Assembly (NCBI RefSeq): GCF_041886205.1 | Contig: NZ_CP169029.1 | Source: Escherichia coli | Lineage (GTDB): Bacteria; Pseudomonadota; Gammaproteobacteria; Enterobacterales; Enterobacteriaceae | DNA length: 64,000 nucleotides | Strand: one strand, 5' to 3' | Part shown: positions 2,389 through 54,439 of the stretch, piece by piece | How positions within the stretch are numbered: position 1 is the first letter of the stretch | How the letters are laid out: each line of letters opens with the position of its first letter | Made by a program: the position numbers and the translations under genes | Notes under the pieces: generated by a model | The model's database searches: none | What the model was told of the DNA's origin: nothing | What the model saw: only the letters and a program-made list of their open reading frames with translations

Positions 2389-3816
2389 CTAGACGATCTC
2401 TTCCGCGTACTGCCAAAGCGCTTTTAACAGCGCCACTTTTTCTTTATCGTCGGCATACTGCTGCGCCAGCATCTGAATCTCTTCTGCATAGCCTTGTAAA
2501 AACTCGGGTGTGAATACCTGGCGGCGGTGCTCCAGCCAACGTTGCTGCTCGGCATAATCCAGCGTCCCCGGGAAGTTGCGCGCCCGATAATTGAACAACA
2601 GCTTTTCAATCCGTTTATCAACAAAAGTGATATCCAGTGCCGGTAAATTACGCGGCTCGGTTTCCAGCACAATTTTCATTGCTGCACGATCGGCGTCACT
2701 GAAAAAGCCGTTATAAAGCTGTGCATCCACGTTATCTGAAGGCGTAAACGGTTCGGCTTCCGCGAATATCGCCACCACTTTTTCGCGCACTTGCGGATTT
2801 TCACGCAGAATTTTCAGGTTATTGAGGCAATGCTGACGATTAATTCCCAGTCGGTCGGCATCTTCCGGGCGTAGCGTATTCGCCTGGGCCAGCACCGGAC
2901 ATTTATTGATATGCACCAGCTTAACCGGAACGGCGGCGTTATCGCCAAGATCGGTTTTTGCGGTATATAAACGCTCGCGCAATGTGTCGCTATCCAGTTC
3001 CAGTAATGGCGAAATGTCTCCTGCCAAATCCACCATAATTACGGCATTGCGATTTTCAGGATGCCACGCCAGCGGTGCCACCCAGCTGGTATTGCCGCGC
3101 CATGCCCCAAACATTCCGGAAACGTGCACCAGGGGTTTCATCTGCGGAACATCAATCAACGCCATCAGTTTGTGTTTATTACGATGGGTAAAGAGATATT
3201 CAAACAGGCGTGGCTGACGCGTTTTTACCAGTTTCGCCATCGCAATAGTGGCGTACACATCAGCCATCGCATCGTGGGCGTTGCTATGTTCAATTCCATT
3301 CGCTTTGGTTAAATGCTCAAGGCGAAAGCTCGGTAGACCGTCATCATTTTCAGGCCAGTTTATTCCTTCCGGGCGCAGGGCATAACAGGCACGCATAACA
3401 TCCAGTAAATCCCAGCGCGAGTTATCATGCTGCCAGCTCCAGGCGTAAGGATCGTAGAAATTACGATAAAAAACGTTGCGTGTGACTTCGTCGTCGAAAC
3501 GCACATTGTTGTAGCCCAGAATACAGGTCTTCGGTACGTTAAAAAGCGAGTGAATACGGGCGGCAAACGCGGCTTCGTTTTCTCCTTTCGCCCGTGCTTC
3601 CTGCGGGGTAATACCGGTAATTAATACTGCTCCAGGCTGGGGCAAATAGTCATCCGCGGGCTTGCAGTAAAAGACTTCGGGTTCGCCGATGACATTGAAT
3701 TCGTTATCAGTGCGAATGGCTGCGAACTGTGCAGGGCGATCTAACGCGGGGTGCGTTCCAAAGGTTTCGTAATCGTGAAACAAAAAGGTAGATTGTTGCT
3801 TACCGTCATTCATCAT
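2389..3816 (-). CDS. sbcB: Exodeoxyribonuclease I
   Basis: Protein from the internal ATG begins MMNDGKQQSTFLFHDYETFG (475 aa); the track ORF has a 16-codon GTG extension. Confidence 0.92.
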   Translation of the reverse strand: MMNDGKQQSTFLFHDYETFGTHPALDRPAQFAAIRTDNEFNVIGEPEVFYCKPADDYLPQPGAVLITGITPQEARAKGENEAAFAARIHSLFNVPKTCILGYNNVRFDDEVTRNVFYRNFYDPYAWSWQHDNSRWDLLDVMRACYALRPEGINWPENDDGLPSFRLEHLTKANGIEHSNAHDAMADVYATIAMAKLVKTRQPRLFEYLFTHRNKHKLMALIDVPQMKPLVHVSGMFGAWRGNTSWVAPLAWHPENRNAVIMVDLAGDISPLLELDSDTLRERLYTAKTDLGDNAAVPVKLVHINKCPVLAQANTLRPEDADRLGINRQHCLNNLKILRENPQVREKVVAIFAEAEPFTPSDNVDAQLYNGFFSDADRAAMKIVLETEPRNLPALDITFVDKRIEKLLFNYRARNFPGTLDYAEQQRWLEHRRQVFTPEFLQGYAEEIQMLAQQYADDKEKVALLKALWQYAEEIV

Positions 3817-4024
3817 TAGGTTAAATCCGTTATTTCTGCTGTCTGCCAGAGTATCAAATATCACCGTGCTAATCAGCTTTAGCGCGACAATTTGGCAGCG
3901 AGTGACAACAGATCATGTCAGATAAAAATGAGATAGTAGTCACATTTTCTTGCACTTTATTCCAGCCAGTTCATAAGTATTTCCGTAAAAAGAACAGCTA
4001 TTTGAAACACCTGAGGGTTTGCTG

Positions 4025-23872: not shown

Positions 23873-23945
23873 ATGTTTTTAGCATCATTGTTGAGACGTA
23901 TTGCATTTAGTTACTACGATTATAAAGCTTATAATTTCAATATTG
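23873..23945 (+). pseudogene. yeeL: yeeL N-terminal 24 codons, separated from the rest by the IS66-family insertion
   Basis: ATG at 23873 with upstream AGGGAGG; frame continues across the 8-bp target duplication into the glycosyltransferase ORF at 26645. Confidence 0.5.
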
Positions 23946-23998
23946 GTAACCGGCTCATTTAAACCGTCTGGTCTGTTTCCTCCGGCTCTACAAAAATA

Positions 23999-24676
23999 AT
24001 GTCCATCATTTTTAATGGACACTATCGTATGAAACACCGGACCTGGATCACTGAAGCTTTACGTCTTCACTTTGAAGAACATTTACCCCGGGTTGTGGCC
24101 GGGCGTCGCCTGGGTGTACCAAAATCAACAGTTTGTAGTATGTTCGTGCGCTTTCGGAGAGCTGGCCTTTCGTGGCCTTTGCCCGCAGGCATGTCGGAGC
24201 AGGAACTTGATGCCTGCCTTTACGGACAATTTTCCACGGTACCAGTCGTACGTCCTGAAAGCACCGTTATATCCGAAGCCCCCGTGGTAAAAAAACGTCC
24301 CCGGCGGCCCAACTTCCCTTATGAGTTTAAAATCGCCTTAGTGGAGCAGTCACTGCAGCCCGGAGCCTGTGTGGCGCAGATCGCCCGGGAAAACGGAATC
24401 AACGATAACCTGCTCTTCAACTGGCGCCATCAATACCGGAAAGGTGGCCTGCTGCCTTCCGGAAAAAATATGCCGGCACTGCTTCCCGTGACGTTAACGC
24501 CGGAGCCGGATAATAAAATCCCGGCCCCCGCACAGGAACCAGAGCAGATAAATACACCGTCCGACAGTCTGTGTTGTGAGCTGGTTCTGCCGGCCGGAAC
24601 TCTCAGGCTTAAAGGTAAACTGACGCCGGCGTTATTACAGACACTTATCCGCGAAATAAAAGGGAGCAGCCACTGA
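23999..24676 (+). CDS. IS66-family accessory protein (TnpA-like, HTH); start codon uncertain
   Basis: C-terminal half ...GACVAQIARENGINDNLLFNWRHQYRKG... resembles IS66 Orf1; stop overlaps the next start (ATGA). Confidence 0.7.
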   Translation: MSIIFNGHYRMKHRTWITEALRLHFEEHLPRVVAGRRLGVPKSTVCSMFVRFRRAGLSWPLPAGMSEQELDACLYGQFSTVPVVRPESTVISEAPVVKKRPRRPNFPYEFKIALVEQSLQPGACVAQIARENGINDNLLFNWRHQYRKGGLLPSGKNMPALLPVTLTPEPDNKIPAPAQEPEQINTPSDSLCCELVLPAGTLRLKGKLTPALLQTLIREIKGSSH

Positions 24677-25023
24677 TGATATCTCTCCCTGCAGGTTCGC
24701 GTATCTGGCTGGTTGCAGGTATCACCGATATGCGAAATGGCTTTAACGGCCTGGCATCAAAAGTTCAGAACGTCCTGAAGGATGACCCGTTCTCCGGACA
24801 CCTGTTCATCTTCCGCGGACGCCGGGGTGACCAGATAAAAGTGTTGTGGGCTGACAGTGACGGACTGTGCCTCTTCACCAAACGCCTGGAGCGGGGCCGC
24901 TTCGTCTGGCCAGTCACCCGTGACGGCAAGGTGCACCTTACTCCGGCTCAGTTATCCATGCTTCTTGAAGGTATCAACTGGAAGCACCCGAAACGAACGG
25001 AACGCGCTGGAATCCGCATATAA
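24676..25023 (+). CDS. tnpB: IS66-family TnpB
   Basis: 115 aa: MISLPAGSRIWLVAGITDMRNGFNGLASKVQNVL... Confidence 0.85.
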   Translation: MISLPAGSRIWLVAGITDMRNGFNGLASKVQNVLKDDPFSGHLFIFRGRRGDQIKVLWADSDGLCLFTKRLERGRFVWPVTRDGKVHLTPAQLSMLLEGINWKHPKRTERAGIRI

Positions 25024-25042
25024 CCCGTTGTAAAGTGAGGAT

Positions 25043-26614
25043 ATGGACACCTCACTTGCTCATGAGAACGCCCGCCTGCGGGCACTGTTGCAGACGCAAC
25101 AGGACACCATCCGCCAGATGGCTGAATACAACCGCCTGCTCTCACAGCGGGTGGCGGCTTATGCTTCCGAAATCAACCGGCTGAAGGCGCTGGTTGCGAA
25201 ACTGCAACGTATGCAGTTCGGTAAAAGCTCAGAAAAACTTCGTGCAAAAACCGAACGGCAGATACAGGAAGCACAGGAGCGAATCAGCGCACTTCAGGAA
25301 GAAATGGCGGAAACGCTGGGTGAGCAATATGACCCGGTACTGCCATCCGCCCTGCGCCAGTCTTCAGCCCGTAAACCGTTACCGGCCTCACTTCCCCGTG
25401 AAACCCGGGTTATCCGGCCGGAAGAGGAATGCTGTCCTGCCTGTGGTGGTGAACTCAGTTCTCTGGGATGTGATGTGTCAGAGCAACTGGAGCTTATCAG
25501 CAGCGCCTTTAAGGTTATCGAAACACAACGTCCGAAACAGGCCTGTTGCCGGTGCGACCATATCGTGCAGGCACCAGTACCTTCAAAACCCATTGCACGC
25601 AGTTATGCCGGAGCGGGGCTTCTGGCCCATGTTGTCACCGGGAAATATGCAGACCATCTGCCGTTATACCGCCAGTCAGAAATATACCGTCGTCAGGGAG
25701 TGGAGCTGAGCCGTGCCACACTGGGGCGCTGGACAGGTGCTGTTGCTGAACTGCTGGAGCCGCTGTATGACGTCCTGCGCCAGTATGTGCTGATGCCCGG
25801 TAAAGTCCATGCTGATGATATCCCCGTCCCGGTCCAGGAGCCGGGCAGCGGTAAAACCCGGACAGCCCGGCTGTGGGTCTACGTCCGTGATGACCGTAAC
25901 GCCGGTTCACAGATGCCCCCGGCGGTCTGGTTCGCGTACAGTCCGGACCGGAAAGGTATCCATCCACAAAATCACCTGGCCGGTTACAGCGGTGTGCTTC
26001 AGGCCGATGCTTACGGTGGTTACCGGGCGTTATACGAATCCGGCAGAATAACGGAAGCCGCGTGTATGGCTCATGCCCGGAGAAAAATCCACGATGTGCA
26101 TGCAAGAGCGTCCACCTACATCACCACGGAAGCCCTGCAGCGTATCGGTGAACTGTATGCCATCGAGGCAGAGGTCCGGGGCTGTTCAGCAGAACAGCGT
26201 CTGGCGGCAAGAAAAGCCAGAGCCGCGCCACTGATGCAGTCACTGTATGACTGGATACAGCAACAGATGAAAACACTGTCGCGTCACTCAGATACGGCAA
26301 AAGCGTTCGCATACCTGCTGAAACAGTGGGATGCACTGAACGTGTACTGCAGTAATGGCTGGGTGGAAATCGACAACAACATCGCAGAGAACGCCTTACG
26401 GGGAGTGGCCGTAGGCCGGAAAAACTGGATGTTCGCGGGTTCCGACAGCGGTGGTGAACATGCGGCGGTGTTGTACTCGCTGATCGGCACATGCCGTCTG
26501 AACAATGTGGAGCCAGAAAAGTGGCTGCGTTACGTCATTGAACATATCCAGGACTGGCCGGCAAACCGGGTACGCGATCTGTTGCCCTGGAAAGTTGATC
26601 TGAGCTCTCAGTAA
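25043..26614 (+). CDS. IS66-family transposase TnpC
   Basis: 523 aa with leucine-zipper N-terminus, CxxC zinc-finger motifs and DDE core; C-terminus [16 protein letters not shown]. Confidence 0.9.
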
Positions 26615-26644
26615 ATATCAATACGGTTCTGACGAGTCGCTTAC

Positions 26645-27632
26645 CAATATTGAAAAAACAGACTTTGTTGTCATCCATATTCCCGATCAGATTGGCGATG
26701 CTATGGCCATCTTTCCTGTTATTCGGGCGCTTGAATTGCATAAAATTAAGCATCTTTTAATTGTAACGTCGACAATTAATTTAGAAGTCTTTAATGCGCT
26801 TAAACTTGAACAGACTAAATTAACATTAGTCACAATGACTATGCAGGATCACGCAACATTAAAAGAAATAAAAGATTTAGCAAAGAACATAACACAGCAA
26901 TACGGTACGCCGGATCTTTGCATTGAGGGGATGCGTAAAAAGAACCTGAAAACGATGTTATTTATCAGTCAGTTGAAAGCAAAAACGAATTTTCAGGTTG
27001 TTGGTATAACCATGAATTGCTTCTCCCCTTTGTGCAAGAACGCGTCCCGTATGGATCAGAAACTCCGGGCTCCCGTACCTATGACATGGGCATTTATGAT
27101 GCGTGAGGCGGGTTTTCCAGCAGTCAGGCCAATATATGAATTGCCACTAAGTGAGGATGTACTCGATGAGGTGCGCGAGGAAATGCGATCGTTAGGATCT
27201 TACATTGCGTTCAATTTAGAAGGTAGCTCGCAGGAACGTACATTTTCATTATCGATTGCAGAAAATCTAATAGCAAAAATTTAAAGTGAAACAGATATAC
27301 CAATAGTGATCGTTCATGGACCCAAAGGTGAAGATAAAGCCAGGGCATTAGTGGATTGTTATAATAATGTCTACCGTTTATCCTTACCACCCTCGATTAA
27401 ACGTTCAGCAGCAATCATAAAAGATGCTTATATCGCAATAACTCCTGACACCTCAATATTACATATGGCAAGTGCCTATAATACCCCTGTTGTTGCAATT
27501 TATGCTGATTACAAAACGCGATGGCCCGCAATGGCCGATGTCTCGGAGTCAGTCGTCGTTGGGCAAAAAATTGACAATATAAGTCTGGATGAATTCGCAA
27601 AGGCATTAAAAAGTGTTTTGGCGAGAATATGA
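26645..27632 (+). pseudogene. yeeL: Glycosyltransferase family 9 (heptosyltransferase-like) pseudogene: IS-interrupted plus in-frame TAA
   Basis: N-terminus ...KTDFVVIHIPDQIGDAMAIFPVIRAL; C-terminal ...ITPDTSILHMASAYNTPVVAIYA motif; track ORFs 26703-27284 and 27306-27632 are in the same frame separated by TAA at 27282. Confidence 0.75.
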
Positions 27633-45881: not shown

Positions 45882-46192
45882 TATGTATTCCCTTGTGATT
45901 ATAATCTTCATGAATATATCAATAAGTGCCGTTATCCAAAAAAAAGCACATTTGGATACTATTCTATGAAGTTCATTTTATTTTAAGGATTACATGTAAC
46001 AAATGTATTTAAAAGATTTCAAAATGTTTCTAATCTATTTAATATAATTCAGGATTATGAATTCTAAATATAAATATTCATGAAAATTATAAATGTATAT
46101 CAATATGTTATGAGTTGAGCGGAAGCATAGGGGGTATCAATGATTGTTGCGCCAAACGGCTGGTGTGATCACGCGCACATTAATGAAGGCAT

Positions 46193-46285
46193 AAAAAAAA
46201 GCCGGCATCATGCCGGCCCAAAAAATATAAACAAGACGATAAAAGGCTAATAACGGAAGCATCATGACACAGAATAATAAAAAGG
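46193..46285 (-). ncRNA. rseX: Candidate small RNA (RseX-like), defined by a minus-strand intrinsic terminator
   Basis: GCCGGCATGATGCCGGC hairpin followed by T8 on the minus strand at about 46193-46217; no ORF upstream on that strand; 5' end not determined. Confidence 0.35.
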
Positions 46286-46429
46286 TATAATTGTAATCAG
46301 TGCTAATATATTGATTGAATGAATTAATAAAGCCGATCTCAAAGATAAATAAAATCGCTCAAAACGATTTTTCCTGTATTCACTGCCGTTGCGCAAAAAT
46401 TATCTATTTGTTCAAAAAATGAGTGAGTC

Positions 46430-46813
46430 TTGACTGGCTCATCCAATGTGGAAAAATGTGACTTTTATCACATAATAGTACTAAGTCTGAATTTTCCGGG
46501 TTATCTCAAAATGGAATACGGTTCGACAAAGATGGAAGAGAGACTCTCTCGCAGCCCTGGCGGCAAACTGGCTTTGTGGGCTTTCTATACATGGTGTGGC
46601 TATTTCGTCTGGGCAATGGCGCGTTACATCTGGGTGATGAGCCGGATCCCCGATGCCCCCGTGTCGGGATTTGAAAGCGATTTAGGTTCTACCGCGGGAA
46701 AGTGGTTAGGGGCACTGGTCGGCTTTTTATTTATGGCTCTGGTCGGGGCATTGTTAGGTAGCATTGCCTGGTACACTCGGCCTCGTCCCGCACGTAGCAG
46801 ACGCTATGAATAA
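46430..46813 (+). CDS. yedR: Inner membrane protein YedR (start codon uncertain)
   Basis: Small protein with two predicted TM helices; track start is TTG, an alternative GTG is 6 codons downstream. Confidence 0.75.
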   Translation: MTGSSNVEKCDFYHIIVLSLNFPGYLKMEYGSTKMEERLSRSPGGKLALWAFYTWCGYFVWAMARYIWVMSRIPDAPVSGFESDLGSTAGKWLGALVGFLFMALVGALLGSIAWYTRPRPARSRRYE

Positions 46814-46852
46814 AAACTGCTAAGGTTGCGACTCTTTGGCAACGGAGCGCGT

Positions 46853-47548
46853 ATGGACTTACAACACTGGCAGGCACAGTTCGAAAACTGGTTGAAAAAC
46901 CATCATCAGCACCAGGACGCGGCCCATGACGTGTGTCATTTTCGTCGCGTCTGGGCTACGGCACAGAAGCTGGCGGCAGATGATGACGTCGATATGCTGG
47001 TGATTTTAACCGCCTGTTATTTCCACGATATTGTGAGCCTGGCGAAAAATCATCCGCAACGGCAGCGTTCTTCAATCCTGGCGGCAGAAGAGACGCGTCG
47101 CCTGCTCCGTGAAGAGTTCGTGCAATTTCCGGCGGAGAAAATCGAGGCCGTTTGTCATGCCATTGCCGCTCACAGTTTCAGCGCGCAAATCGCCCCCTTA
47201 ACAACGGAAGCTAAAATCGTCCAGGATGCGGATCGGCTGGAAGCCCTGGGGGCGATTGGCCTGGCGCGCGTGTTTGCCGTTTCAGGGGCATTGGGCGTGG
47301 CGCTGTTTGATGGCGAAGATCCGTTCGCACAGTATCGCCCGCTTGATGATAAACGCTACGCGCTGGATCATTTCCAGACTAAGTTGCTGAAGCTACCGCA
47401 AACCATGCAAACCGCAAGAGGCAAGCAGCTGGCGCAGCACAACGCGCATTTTTTAGTCGAGTTTATGGCGAAGCTCAGTGCCGAACTGGCGGGGGAGAAT
47501 GAAGGTGTCGATCACAAGGTGATAGATGCGTTTTCACCCGCGGGCTGA
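46853..47548 (+). CDS. yedJ: HD-domain phosphohydrolase YedJ
   Basis: 231 aa from [14 protein letters not shown]...; HD motif (CYFHDIV). Confidence 0.85.
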
Positions 47549-47614
47549 GCGCGTGGCCCTAAATGGCTGTAATTATGTTAACCTGTCGGCCATCTCAGAT
47601 GGCCGGTTAAATCT

Positions 47615-49033
47615 ATGCAGGAAAATATATCAGTAACCGATTCATACAGCACCGGGAATGCCGCACAGGCAATGCTGGAGAAACTGCTGCAAATTTATGA
47701 TGTTAAAACGTTGGTGGCGCAGCTTAATGGTGTAGGTGAGAATCACTGGAGCGCGGCAATTTTAAAACGTGCGCTGGCGAATGACTCGGCATGGCACCGT
47801 TTAAGTGAGAAAGAGTTCGCCCATCTGCAAACGTTATTACCCAAACCACCGGCACATCATCCGCATTATGCGTTTCGCTTTATCGATCTATTCGCCGGAA
47901 TTGGCGGCATCCGTCGCGGTTTTGAATCGATTGGCGGACAGTGCGTGTTTACCAGCGAATGGAACAAACATGCGGTACGCACTTATAAAGCCAACCATTA
48001 TTGCGATCCGGCGACGCATCATTTTAATGAAGATATCCGCGACATCACCCTCAGCCATAAAGAAGGCGTGAGTGATGAGGCGGCGGCGGAACATATTCGT
48101 CAACACATTCCTGAACACGATGTTTTACTGGCCGGTTTCCCTTGTCAGCCATTTTCGCTGGCTGGCGTATCGAAAAAGAACTCGCTCGGGCGGGCGCACG
48201 GTTTTGCCTGCGATACCCAGGGCACGCTGTTTTTTGATGTGGTGCGCATTATCGACTCGCGTCGTCCGGCGATGTTTGTGCTCGAAAACGTCAAAAACCT
48301 GAAAAGCCATGACCAGGGTAAAACGTTCCGCATCATCATGCAGACGCTGGACGAACTGGGCTATGACGTGGCTGATGCAGAAGATAACGGGCCGGACGAT
48401 CCGAAAATCATCGATGGCAAACATTTTCTGCCGCAGCACCGTGAACGCATCGTGCTGGTGGGTTTTCGTCGCGATCTTAATCTGAAAGCCGATTTTACTC
48501 TGCGTGATATCAGCGAATGTTTCCCTGCACAGCGAGTGACGCTGGCGCAGCTGCTGGACCCGATGGTCGAGGCGAAATATATCCTGACGCCGGTGCTGTG
48601 GAAGTACCTCTATCGATATGCGAAAAAACATCAGGCGCGCGGTAACGGCTTCGGTTATGGAATGGTTTATCCGAACAATCCGCAAAGCGTCACCCGTACG
48701 CTGTCTGCGCGTTATTACAAAGATGGCGCGGAAATTTTAATCGATCGCGGCTGGGATATGGCCACGGGTGAGAAAGACTTTGACGATCCGCTGAATCAGC
48801 AACATCGTCCACGTCGGTTAACGCCTCGGGAATGCGCGCGCTTAATGGGTTTTGAAGCGCCGGGAGAAGCGAAATTCCGCATTCCGGTTTCGGACACTCA
48901 GGCCTATCGCCAGTTCGGTAACTCGGTGGTCGTGCCGGTCTTTGCCGCGGTGGCAAAACTGCTTGAGCCAAAAATCAAACAGGCGGTGGCGTTGCGTCAG
49001 CAAGAGGCACAACATGGCCGACGTTCACGATAA
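47615..49033 (+). CDS. dcm: DNA-cytosine C5-methyltransferase Dcm (CCWGG)
   Basis: 472 aa with motif I FAGIGG, catalytic PCQPFS, ENV motif. Confidence 0.93.
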
Positions 49034-49484
49034 GGCCACTCGCAGCAAAAATATGCGCGCGATTGCCACGCGTGATACGGCGATAGAGAAGCGCCTCGCC
49101 AGTCTGTTAACCGGGCAGGGCCTGGCGTTTCGCGTTCAGGACGCCAGTCTGCCCGGACGCCCGGATTTTGTCGTTGATGAATATTGTTGCGTGATATTTA
49201 CCCACGGCTGCTTCTGGCATCATCATCACTGCTATCTGTTTAAAGTGCCTGCGACTCGAACCGAATTCTGGCTGGAGAAGATAGGTAAAAATGTTGAACG
49301 CGATCGCCGCGATATCAGTCGTTTGCAGGAACTCGGCTGGCGCGTATTGATTGTCTGGGAGTGTGCATTACGTGGGCGCGAGAAGCTGACGGATGAAGCG
49401 CTTACCGAGCGTCTGGAAGAGTGGATCTGCGGCGAAGGTGCCAGCGCGCAGATCGACACGCAGGGGATTCATTTACTCGCTTGA
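49014..49484 (+). CDS. vsr: Very-short-patch repair endonuclease Vsr
   Basis: 156 aa from [29 protein letters not shown]...; start overlaps the last 20 nt of dcm in another frame. Confidence 0.92.
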
Positions 49485-50393
49485 TGCGTCCTGAATAACT
49501 GGCGCAACTACGGGTTTTGCCGGGAAGAGATATATTCCCAACGTGACCAGTACCACCGCGAAGACAATTACGCCGAGCGCCAGCCATTCAATCTTCGACA
49601 GCGTTTCGCCACCCAGTCCCGTACCCAGCAAGACCGCGACCACCGGGTTAACGTAGGCGTAGCTGGTGGCGAGAGCCGGACTGACGTTGCGGATTAAATA
49701 CATATAAGCGTTAATGGCGATAATCGAACCAAACAGCGCCAGATAGCCGACCGCAAGGAAGCCTGAAAGGGAAGGGAGCGCCGTCAGTTTTTCACCCGCA
49801 ATCATCGACGCAATCATTAACACCACGCCTGCCGCCAGCATCTCAATCGCACCCGCCATCATCCCTACAGGTAATGTAATGCGCGAGCCATAAACCGAGC
49901 CAAACGCCCAGCTAATCGAGCCGATTAAAATCAGAATCGCGCCCCATGGATTGCCGCTTAAGTTTCCACCGCTATTGAGCATGATGATTCCGGCAAGCCC
50001 AATGGCGATACCCACCCATTCCAGTTTGCGAGTTTTAATGCCAAACAGGCGGCTGAAGCACAGGGTAAAAAGGGGCACGGTTGCAACCACTACGGCGGCG
50101 ATGCCGGAAGGAACATTTTGATGTTCGGCAACCGTCACCATGCCATTACCGACAGCCAGCAATAACAGGCCAATCAGCGCGGCATTGAGCAGCGGACGTA
50201 GCGGGGGGAGTTTGTGTCCGCGCAGTAGCAAAAATGCCAGCAATAAAATACCGGCTGCCAGGAATCGAACGCCCGCCATCATTAACGGAGGCCAGCTTTC
50301 CACGCCAATCCGAATGACAAAATAGGTTGAGCCCCAAATGATATACAACGCAAACAGCGCGCCAAAAAGCGGTAACAACTGGCGGAAACGCAT
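49473..50393 (-). CDS. yedA: EamA/DMT-family transporter YedA
   Basis: 306 aa, 10-TMS EamA-type membrane protein. Confidence 0.85.
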   Translation of the reverse strand: MRFRQLLPLFGALFALYIIWGSTYFVIRIGVESWPPLMMAGVRFLAAGILLLAFLLLRGHKLPPLRPLLNAALIGLLLLAVGNGMVTVAEHQNVPSGIAAVVVATVPLFTLCFSRLFGIKTRKLEWVGIAIGLAGIIMLNSGGNLSGNPWGAILILIGSISWAFGSVYGSRITLPVGMMAGAIEMLAAGVVLMIASMIAGEKLTALPSLSGFLAVGYLALFGSIIAINAYMYLIRNVSPALATSYAYVNPVVAVLLGTGLGGETLSKIEWLALGVIVFAVVLVTLGIYLFPAKPVVAPVIQDASSE

Positions 50394-50565
50394 AATCCCT
50401 CACGGCTGAAATAAAAAGGTGGTTCATAGTAAACGTGAAAATCATTCTGCTGGCGAGAGATATAATTGCACTTGATTGTTAAATAAATGTTGACCTGTGA
50501 AGCAAGTATCAGAGCTGCCGTTTTTGCTTCATACTTACACCCTTCAACAATAAAAATGAGAGGGA

Positions 50566-51483
50566 ATGCTTTTGGCCGGGAGTAGTTTACTGACGTTGCT
50601 CGATGATATCGCCACACTGCTGGACGATATCTCCGTGATGGGCAAACTGGCGGCGAAGAAAACCGCCGGTGTATTAGGGGATGACTTATCGCTCAATGCG
50701 CAACAAGTTTCAGGCGTGCGGGCCAACCGGGAACTTCCCGTGGTCTGGGGCGTGGCGAAAGGTTCGCTGATCAATAAAGTGATTCTGGTGCCGCTGGCGC
50801 TGATCATCAGTGCGTTTATCCCGTGGGCGATTACGCCACTGTTGATGATTGGCGGCGCGTTTCTCTGCTTTGAAGGGGTAGAGAAAGTGCTGCATATGCT
50901 GGAGGCGCGTAAACATAAAGAAGATCCGGCGCAGAGTCAGCAGCGTCTGGAGAAGCTGGCGGCGCAGGATCCGCTGAAGTTTGAAAAGGACAAAATAAAA
51001 GGGGCGATTCGTACCGATTTTATATTGTCTGCGGAAATCGTCGCCATCACGCTGGGGATTGTGGCAGAAGCGCCGTTGCTTAATCAGGTGCTGGTGCTTT
51101 CAGGCATCGCGCTGGTAGTGACCGTGGGCGTCTACGGTCTGGTAGGGGTTATCGTTAAGATTGATGACCTGGGGTATTGGCTGGCGGAAAAATCCAGCGC
51201 GCTGATGCAGGCATTAGGTAAAGGGTTATTGATCATTGCGCCCTGGTTGATGAAAGCGTTATCGATTGTCGGCACGCTGGCGATGTTCCTCGTCGGCGGC
51301 GGGATTGTGGTACATGGTATTGCGCCGTTGCATCACGCCATTGAACATTTCGCCGGGCAGCAAAGTGCAGTGGTGGCGATGATATTACCGACTGTTTTAA
51401 ATCTGATTCTTGGATTTATCATCGGCGGCATCGTGGTGCTGGGAGTGAAAGCCGTAGCGAAAATGCGCGGTCAGGCACATTAA
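50566..51483 (+). CDS. yedI: DUF808 inner membrane protein YedI
   Basis: 305-aa membrane protein; synteny. Confidence 0.85.
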
Positions 51484-51561
51484 TACTCGCACAGGCTATT
51501 ATGCAAAATTCGCCATCTTCAACTAAGGTGAACAAGTTTCACTCGAAAAAAGGAGGCGAGT

Positions 51562-51914: not shown

Positions 51915-54439
<2,525 letters not shown>

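Follow-up and report, generated by a model that had tools for sequence, protein, structure and literature searches.

Vsr repairs the T:G mismatches left by deamination of the 5-methylcytosine made by Dcm. In Escherichia coli K-12, the genes of these two proteins form a dcm-vsr operon (b1961-b1960) facing the convergent gene yedA (b1959), which shares genes, order and strands with the locus described here. The dcm gene partly overlaps vsr (PMC4444293), the yedR-yedJ-dcm-vsr genes lie in one operon (10.1101/262964), and a passage of PMC12907096 that cites Sohail 1990 places vsr downstream of dcm, on a shared transcript. The dcm-vsr-yedA arrangement is therefore not a new one: it is already known from reference annotation and from papers of the years 1990-1993 (Sohail 1990; Dar & Bhagwat 1993).

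Other described systems resemble one or the other end of vsr. Among same-strand overlapping pairs, the -4, -1 and -8 overlaps dominate, and reinitiation is a local event in which post-termination ribosomes can reposition over roughly 20 nt (Huber et al. 2023, PMC10666635). These pairs share with dcm-vsr the common strand, co-transcription, a Shine-Dalgarno (SD) sequence inside the upstream gene, and a downstream start adjoining the upstream stop. The difference resides in the 20-nt overlap of dcm-vsr, over which a terminating ribosome would have to retreat 17 nt. Convergent overlaps are not rare either, 75 of them having been counted in one E. coli genome (PMC4161906). In such pairs, dgcQ/yedP for example, the stop regions overlap tail-to-tail via stop movement, as do those of vsr and yedA, and both cases are devoid of an intergenic terminator; the overlap is 4 nt long in dgcQ/yedP as compared to 12 nt in vsr/yedA. 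The bidirectional intrinsic terminators reported by Ju et al. 2019 serve convergent pairs that require termination both ways, like vsr/yedA, but the latter possesses neither an intergenic hairpin nor U/A tracts. Finally, antisense transcripts constitute the largest class of Rho regions, 51.5% (Peters 2012; Adams 2021). The read-through cases of these two studies exhibit a bicyclomycin-sensitive drop of coverage a few hundred nt past the stop and C>G RNA antisense to the neighbouring gene; the dcm-vsr strand, with its published bicyclomycin-sensitive region and its C>G RNA, would fit this class, with no differences.

The features of the locus are given below in coordinates of the window, the whole 64-kb stretch of E. 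coli DNA that was analysed.

46532-47548, plus strand: drpB (yedR) and yedJ, the genes upstream of dcm (RefSeq annotation)
47615-49033, plus strand: dcm, 472 aa, stop TAA (six-frame ORF listing and direct reading)
49002-49007, plus strand: Shine-Dalgarno-like AAGAGG of vsr, inside dcm codons Q-E-A, with a 6-nt spacer to the ATG
49014-49484, plus strand: vsr, 156 aa, ATG start, stop TGA (ORF listing and direct reading of 48900-49620)
49014-49033, plus strand: dcm/vsr overlap of 20 nt, ATGGCCGACGTTCACGATAA, dcm stop codon included
49473-50393, minus strand: yedA, 306 aa, stop TAA (ORF listing and RefSeq annotation)
49473-49484, both strands: vsr/yedA convergent overlap of 12 nt, TTACTCGCTTGA
49485-49836, plus strand: putative untranslated 3' extension, antisense to yedA, by which the dcm-vsr transcript would reach a Rho region and end there

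We favour, with a probability of about 85%, the reading of this locus as a chromosomal (drpB-yedJ-)dcm-vsr operon with a coupled vsr, a Rho 3' end and a neutral overlap with yedA. The vsr frame is +1 relative to that of dcm, as established by direct reading and a scripted check. Direct reading also places the vsr ATG 17 nt ahead of the dcm TAA and its SD within dcm. Over 49014-49033, the last dcm codons read HGRRSR* and vsr codons 1-7 read MADVHDK, the dcm TAA falling inside GAT-AAG (Asp6-Lys7) of vsr. At the other end, the four codons that vsr and yedA share at 49473-49484 are in exact antisense register: TTA of Vsr Leu154 pairs with the yedA stop TAA, and TCA of YedA Ser303 with the vsr stop TGA. 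A second convergent overlap of the window is that of dgcQ/yedP (4 nt). Among RNA families, rseX alone was matched in 46000-51500, outside the dcm-vsr-yedA overlaps.

Profile searches assign the three products. Dcm matches Pfam DNA_methylase (PF00145; 3.9e-77, 260.3 bits, model positions 1-320 of 324) and, at its N-terminus, DNA_meth_N (3.9e-20, 72.1 bits); it is 99.8% identical to K-12 Dcm and is identified on this basis as a DNA-cytosine (C5) methyltransferase. YedA exhibits two stretches that match EamA (PF00892; 4.8e-43, 147.1 bits), corresponding to two EamA repeats, and shares 99.7% identity with K-12 YedA, identifying it by similarity as an EamA/DMT-family exporter. Vsr scores 130.5 bits (2.1e-38) against the Pfam Vsr model (PF03852), whose curated cut-off is 27, and its sequence identifies it as the very-short-patch repair T:G mismatch endonuclease. 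Its translation contains D51, C66, H69, H71, C73 and C117; from the structure papers, we take Asp51 and His69 to be catalytic and Cys66, His71, Cys73 and Cys117 to be the Zn ligands. Residues 2-156 align with the solved structure 1CW0 with 154 of 155 identical, the sole difference being R58C. As this match begins at Ala2, it supports ATG 49014 as the true vsr start.

A 3.2-kb block of the window matches E. coli strain LR-27 at 100% identity, and RefSeq gives the same boundaries there; since colinearity between LR-27 and the window is lost upstream of ~45756, the coordinates given here are limited to those checked directly in the window. The block is found in 5,367 of 5,426 complete E. coli genomes. 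In K-12 MG1655, RefSeq annotates yedA at 2029539-2030459 (+), vsr at 2030448-2030918 (-) and dcm at 2030899-2032317 (-), and the two sequences differ over a 2,779-nt block by 38 substitutions and no indels. Proteins of 472, 156 and 306 aa and overlaps of 20 and 12 nt are common to both, and nothing structural differs; Vsr residue 58 is Cys in the window and Arg in both K-12 and 1CW0. Both junctions are present in ~98-99% of the 5,426 genomes. The 81-nt dcm/vsr junction, with both genes annotated, occurs in 5,319 of them, always at at least 95% identity, and the 81-nt vsr/yedA junction in 5,363, of which 414 lie at 90-95%.

A preliminary description of this DNA had announced a 20-nt dcm-vsr overlap with vsr starting in the last dcm codons in another frame, and a 12-nt convergent overlap of vsr with yedA. 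The gene identities and both overlaps, at 49014-49033 and 49473-49484, agree with the RefSeq annotation of LR-27 and MG1655, and the +1 frame and ATG 49014 were read directly. Its reading holds in the main, with qualifications on coupling and on terminators. It had also presented the dcm/vsr overlap as a known arrangement, which is indeed published (PMC4444293), and had proposed a comparison with reference annotation, in which differing stop positions would count against it; the RefSeq stops are identical.

To place the overlaps in the family, a Vsr protein scan of one genome per species was carried out, yielding 80 Enterobacteriaceae loci on which Dcm, Vsr and YedA were placed by tblastn, each being extended to its stop codon. 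Upstream of vsr, these loci contain the following.

52 of 80 loci: 20-nt overlap in the +1 frame, dcm stop TAA
4 of 80 loci: 17-nt overlap
2 of 80 loci: 35-nt overlap, Siccibacter
6 of 80 loci: dcm present without overlap, Buttiauxella and Cedecea
16 of 80 loci: dcm absent within 3.5 kb

No gaps occur in the alignment of 47 loci, where the dcm stop is a TAA inside vsr codons 6-7 (GAT-AAG, AAT-AAG or AGT-AAG). Because this TAA sits inside them, the overlap length depends on vsr codons 5-7: with CAT-AAC the TAA arises earlier and the overlap is 17 nt, while with GAC-AAA it is lost and the overlap reaches 35 nt. These length variants are partly synonymous in vsr, and the Vsr N-terminus is equally conserved at loci without dcm. 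As the variants follow codon choice at positions 5-7, the 20 nt are a by-product of the conserved Vsr N-terminus, whose codons set the length with no designed coupling distance: dcm reads in its own frame into this strongly conserved N-terminus up to the first stop, the TAA in Asp6-Lys7. The fixed CAC/GAT codons 5-6 were considered as a sign of selection on the dcm stop; this argument was set aside as partly circular, because the loci had been grouped by overlap length.

Neither overlap is a product of chance or an annotation artefact. In-frame TTG codons upstream of the vsr ATG and a further ATG at 49053 are the material for suspecting a wrong vsr start, and a wrong stop might be imagined likewise. 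Such an error is scarcely credible: the crystallised full-length protein (1CW0) starts at Ala2 of the vsr ORF, most of the 80 loci, dcm-less ones included, keep the Vsr N-terminus from its first residue, and the stop codons are unambiguous in the sequence.

Translational coupling of vsr to dcm is likely, on published evidence. In the favoured reading, a single mRNA would bear dcm and vsr; ribosomes would start vsr at ATG 49014 via a moderate SD, AAGAGG, inside dcm, and those translating dcm to its stop, 17 nt downstream, would assist this initiation. Vsr initiation being helped by dcm-translating ribosomes, Vsr would therefore be produced whenever Dcm is, a coupling that we infer together with the literature. 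We know of no complex of which Dcm and Vsr are both subunits. The alternative that weighs most on the coupling holds that vsr relies on its own SD for an independent translation and that the overlap plays no part in coupling, the loss of Vsr in dcm nonsense mutants reflecting Rho-dependent transcriptional polarity. The SD before the vsr ATG is indeed recognisable, with its 6-nt spacer and a duplex energy with the anti-SD of -5.8 kcal/mol, and its purine-rich GAG core is retained in most of the 47 aligned loci. In 22 of the 80 loci, moreover, vsr either follows yedJ on its own or comes after a dcm that does not overlap it. The SD is nevertheless moderately weaker where dcm overlaps vsr than at free-standing loci (median -5.6 versus ~-8 kcal/mol; Mann-Whitney p 0.002, kinship ignored), which would fit a partial reliance on dcm-delivered ribosomes. 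In the same direction, Dar and Bhagwat are said to have concluded in 1993 that efficient Vsr synthesis requires dcm translation. The overlap of 20 nt falls outside the -4/-1/-8 classes usual for reinitiation, but the dcm stop is within the roughly 20-nt reach of repositioning post-termination ribosomes (PMC10666635); a backward repositioning of 17 nt is plausible, if atypical for termination-reinitiation. The genetic evidence is indirect: according to a passage of PMC4444293 that cites Dar & Bhagwat 1993, the dcm-6 nonsense mutation, at codon 45, takes away vsr activity as well. This mutation is located ~1.3 kb upstream of the vsr start, an ample distance for Rho polarity, and the resulting loss of vsr fits coupling and polarity alike. 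Altogether, we consider fully independent translation of vsr unlikely, while granting it real weight.

A different form of coupling would be the unmasking of vsr, an mRNA hairpin hiding its SD and AUG until opened by ribosomes translating the end of dcm. The minimum-free-energy fold of 48924-49058 does enclose SD and AUG in a long imperfect hairpin (~48982-49043), but this E. coli fold is no better than that of shuffled sequence (z -0.66), and the consensus fold of the 47 loci (-4.9 kcal/mol) contains neither pairs at the SD/AUG nor compensatory pairs. With a single-sequence fold that is not significant and an alignment fold devoid of covariation, an RBS-sequestering RNA structure was rejected as a candidate, and unmasking is very improbable. 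Returning to coupling by dcm-translating ribosomes, VSP repair is described as mostly a stationary-phase process, and Vsr expression as having to be under regulation (PMC2715241), a passage of the same paper that cites Macintyre 1999 describing growth-phase regulation of Vsr. Coupling to dcm therefore cannot be the only control of Vsr.

The 3' end of the dcm-vsr transcript was addressed by sequence scans and by published RNA data. A consensus scan of both strands detects no terminator-like site within ~250 nt of the vsr/yedA junction, and the junction folds no better than shuffles on either strand (z -0.34 and +0.59); an intrinsic or bidirectional terminator at this place was discarded on these grounds. 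A minus-strand hairpin at 49072-49056, followed by a T-rich tail, was also examined as a yedA terminator located within vsr. This hairpin falls on Vsr codons 15-20, which are conserved, and Adams 2021 reports no 3' end antisense to vsr; the candidate was not retained. On the yedA strand, no termination site emerges from the junction scan, and no bicyclomycin-sensitive site from Adams 2021. The curated Term-seq 3' ends of the latter study include none assigned to dcm, vsr, yedA or yedJ, and the SMRT-Cappable-seq supplements contain no entry for these genes.

A Rho termination region has been mapped at MG1655 2030096, on the minus strand, antisense to yedA (Adams et al. 2021, PMC7815308). Reads upstream and downstream of it number 57 and 5 without bicyclomycin, and 206 and 187 with the drug (PMC7815308), for a Rho score of 10.35 and a p value of 5.1e-10 (PMC7815308 supplementary file 2). 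By the colinear, indel-free K-12 alignment, this position falls at window ~49836, 352 nt beyond the vsr stop, the region being placed to within 800-nt counting windows. The reads probably belong to dcm-vsr read-through and not to an internal antisense promoter. After the vsr stop, the RNA is richer in C than in G at +61-150 and +301-390, C/G reaching 3.25; past the yedA stop, C>G likewise holds for ~200 nt. Past the vsr stop, the favoured mechanism would thus comprise untranslated, C-rich RNA antisense to yedA, ended by Rho ~350 nt on. The preliminary description had stated that the convergent overlap leaves no room for separate terminators. This stands as far as intergenic space is concerned, which is nil, and fails in what it suggests for termination, since this can take place inside the opposing gene, where the Rho region lies 352 nt on.

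Does the vsr/yedA overlap have a function of its own? Both stops could be placed in 78 loci, whose junctions range between a gap of 28 nt and an overlap of 86 nt, with vsr and yedA overlapping in 63. Among the common values, Escherichia and Salmonella have 12 nt, most Citrobacter 9 nt, Klebsiella and Raoultella 26 nt, Enterobacter and Lelliottia 29 nt, and Buttiauxella 0 nt; the 28-nt spacer, which holds a hairpin, is found in Kosakonia oryzendophytica only. The C-terminal tails of Vsr and YedA are both unconserved across loci. This pattern looks like that expected of neutral stop-codon movement at a junction where a spacer was never present, and the 12-nt tail-to-tail overlap would result from neutral drift of stop codons in two dispensable C-terminal tails.

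It might be argued, conversely, that the overlap is functional, the two terminator-less units regulating each other via antisense RNA or head-on RNA polymerase collision. The dcm-vsr transcription running ~350 nt antisense into yedA before the Rho stop and the family-wide persistence of the compact arrangement, overlapping in those 63 of 78 loci, speak in its favour, as does a proposal that collisions bring about termination at convergent genes (10.1101/2022.10.23.513370). The length and sequence of the overlap are, however, unconserved (-28 to +86 nt), and YedA and Vsr are not known to be functionally linked. Antisense Rho termination is the commonest class genome-wide, with the 51.5% of Rho regions quoted above, and E. 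coli has 75 such overlaps (PMC4161906). A functional junction is accordingly doubtful. A more specific version, in which the dcm-vsr read-through RNA, covering ~350 nt of yedA in antisense, and the yedA read-through RNA, antisense to vsr and dcm, mutually interfere, so that Rho activity or yedA expression sets Vsr levels, is highly speculative; if true, it could be one source of the reported dependence of Vsr on growth phase, in spite of the transcript shared with dcm.

The dcm-vsr-yedA arrangement is a real one, is present in reference annotation and in print, and is therefore ordinary. To this, the comparison adds that no conserved RNA structure exists at the vsr RBS among the aligned loci and that the tail overlap drifts freely among genera, while the terminator question at vsr/yedA probably finds its answer in the published Rho-dependent termination inside yedA.

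A separate observation concerns the family as a whole. In 16 of the 80 loci, an intact vsr is under purifying selection with no adjacent dcm. The keeping of vsr under such selection away from dcm is more interesting than the overlaps themselves.

The vsr gene is found without a neighbouring dcm in 16 of the 80 Enterobacteriaceae loci, where dcm is absent within 3.5 kb of vsr, a count that concerns the locus neighbourhood only. These loci include Kosakonia, Phytobacter, Pseudescherichia vulneris, Klebsiella oxytoca, K. spallanzanii and Enterobacter sp. kpr-6. They are listed below, followed by the Buttiauxella loci, in which dcm is present but separated from vsr (locus coordinates):

vsr without dcm within 3.5 kb, vsr at ~3501-3970 in each: L023, L034, L035, L038, L039, L042, L045, L050, L059, L067, L072, L073, L075, L078, L080, L082
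Buttiauxella dcm-vsr interval: L052, 2625-3501; L055, 2363-3385; L070, 2480-3501; also L056

The gene order yedJ-vsr-yedA is retained in most of the dcm-less loci inspected. Their vsr reading frame is whole, with D51, C66, H69, H71, C73 and C117 all kept, and its dN/dS is 0.074, as compared to 0.086 in the dcm-linked loci. In K. oxytoca, ~10 nt from the 3' end of dcm (GAGATTAACC) are still present ahead of the vsr ATG, a remnant that suggests that dcm was deleted at this locus. A different arrangement is found in Buttiauxella: the distance from dcm to vsr is ~0.9-1.0 kb and the interval holds a 172-residue ORF on the opposite strand, with a signal peptide-like N-terminus (MKKHQILFIPVLLLSG...), so that, judging from this layout, the two genes are uncoupled. 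Within the Vsr protein itself, residue 58 is a cysteine in the window (codon TGT at 49185-49187, in the motif EYCCV), while it is an arginine in K-12 and in the crystallised protein (PDB ID 1CW0).

Other features of the window and of L082 (Kosakonia oryzendophytica) are as follows:

~23945-26645: IS66-family element with a row of three ORFs (225, 115 and 523 amino acids) at 23999-26614
46194-46283, minus strand: rseX, an sRNA that binds Hfq (score 97.7 bits; gathering cut-off 50)
49046-49072, minus (yedA) strand: terminator-like hairpin, CGCGTGGCAATCGCGCG then CATATTTTTG
53606-53609: 4-nt convergent overlap of dgcQ (plus strand, ending at 53609) and yedP (53606-54421, minus strand)
L082, ~3982-4017: perfect 7-bp hairpin AGCTGCC-ctttgaa-GGCAGCT in the vsr-yedA spacer

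The dgcQ/yedP overlap, which the K-12 annotation shows as well, is a second convergent overlap in the window besides vsr/yedA. The rseX gene lies upstream of drpB. The IS66-family element is missing in the otherwise similar strain LR-27, which conversely carries an IS1, absent from the window, inside the porin gene upstream of drpB.

The minus-strand hairpin at 49046-49072 is located ~400 nt beyond the yedA stop, within vsr codons ~15-20, and overlaps conserved Vsr coding sequence; no 3' end is reported there in the data of Adams et al. 2021. L082 is the sole locus with a real vsr-yedA spacer (28 nt), whose hairpin may, from its sequence, be a small bidirectional terminator. In supplementary file 2 of Adams et al. 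2021 (row 2030096), the 800-nt upstream counting window (~49036-49836) covers vsr, and its reads rise from 57 to 206 with bicyclomycin. This 3.6-fold increase hints that dcm-vsr transcript levels upstream are also limited by Rho, or that bicyclomycin acts globally.
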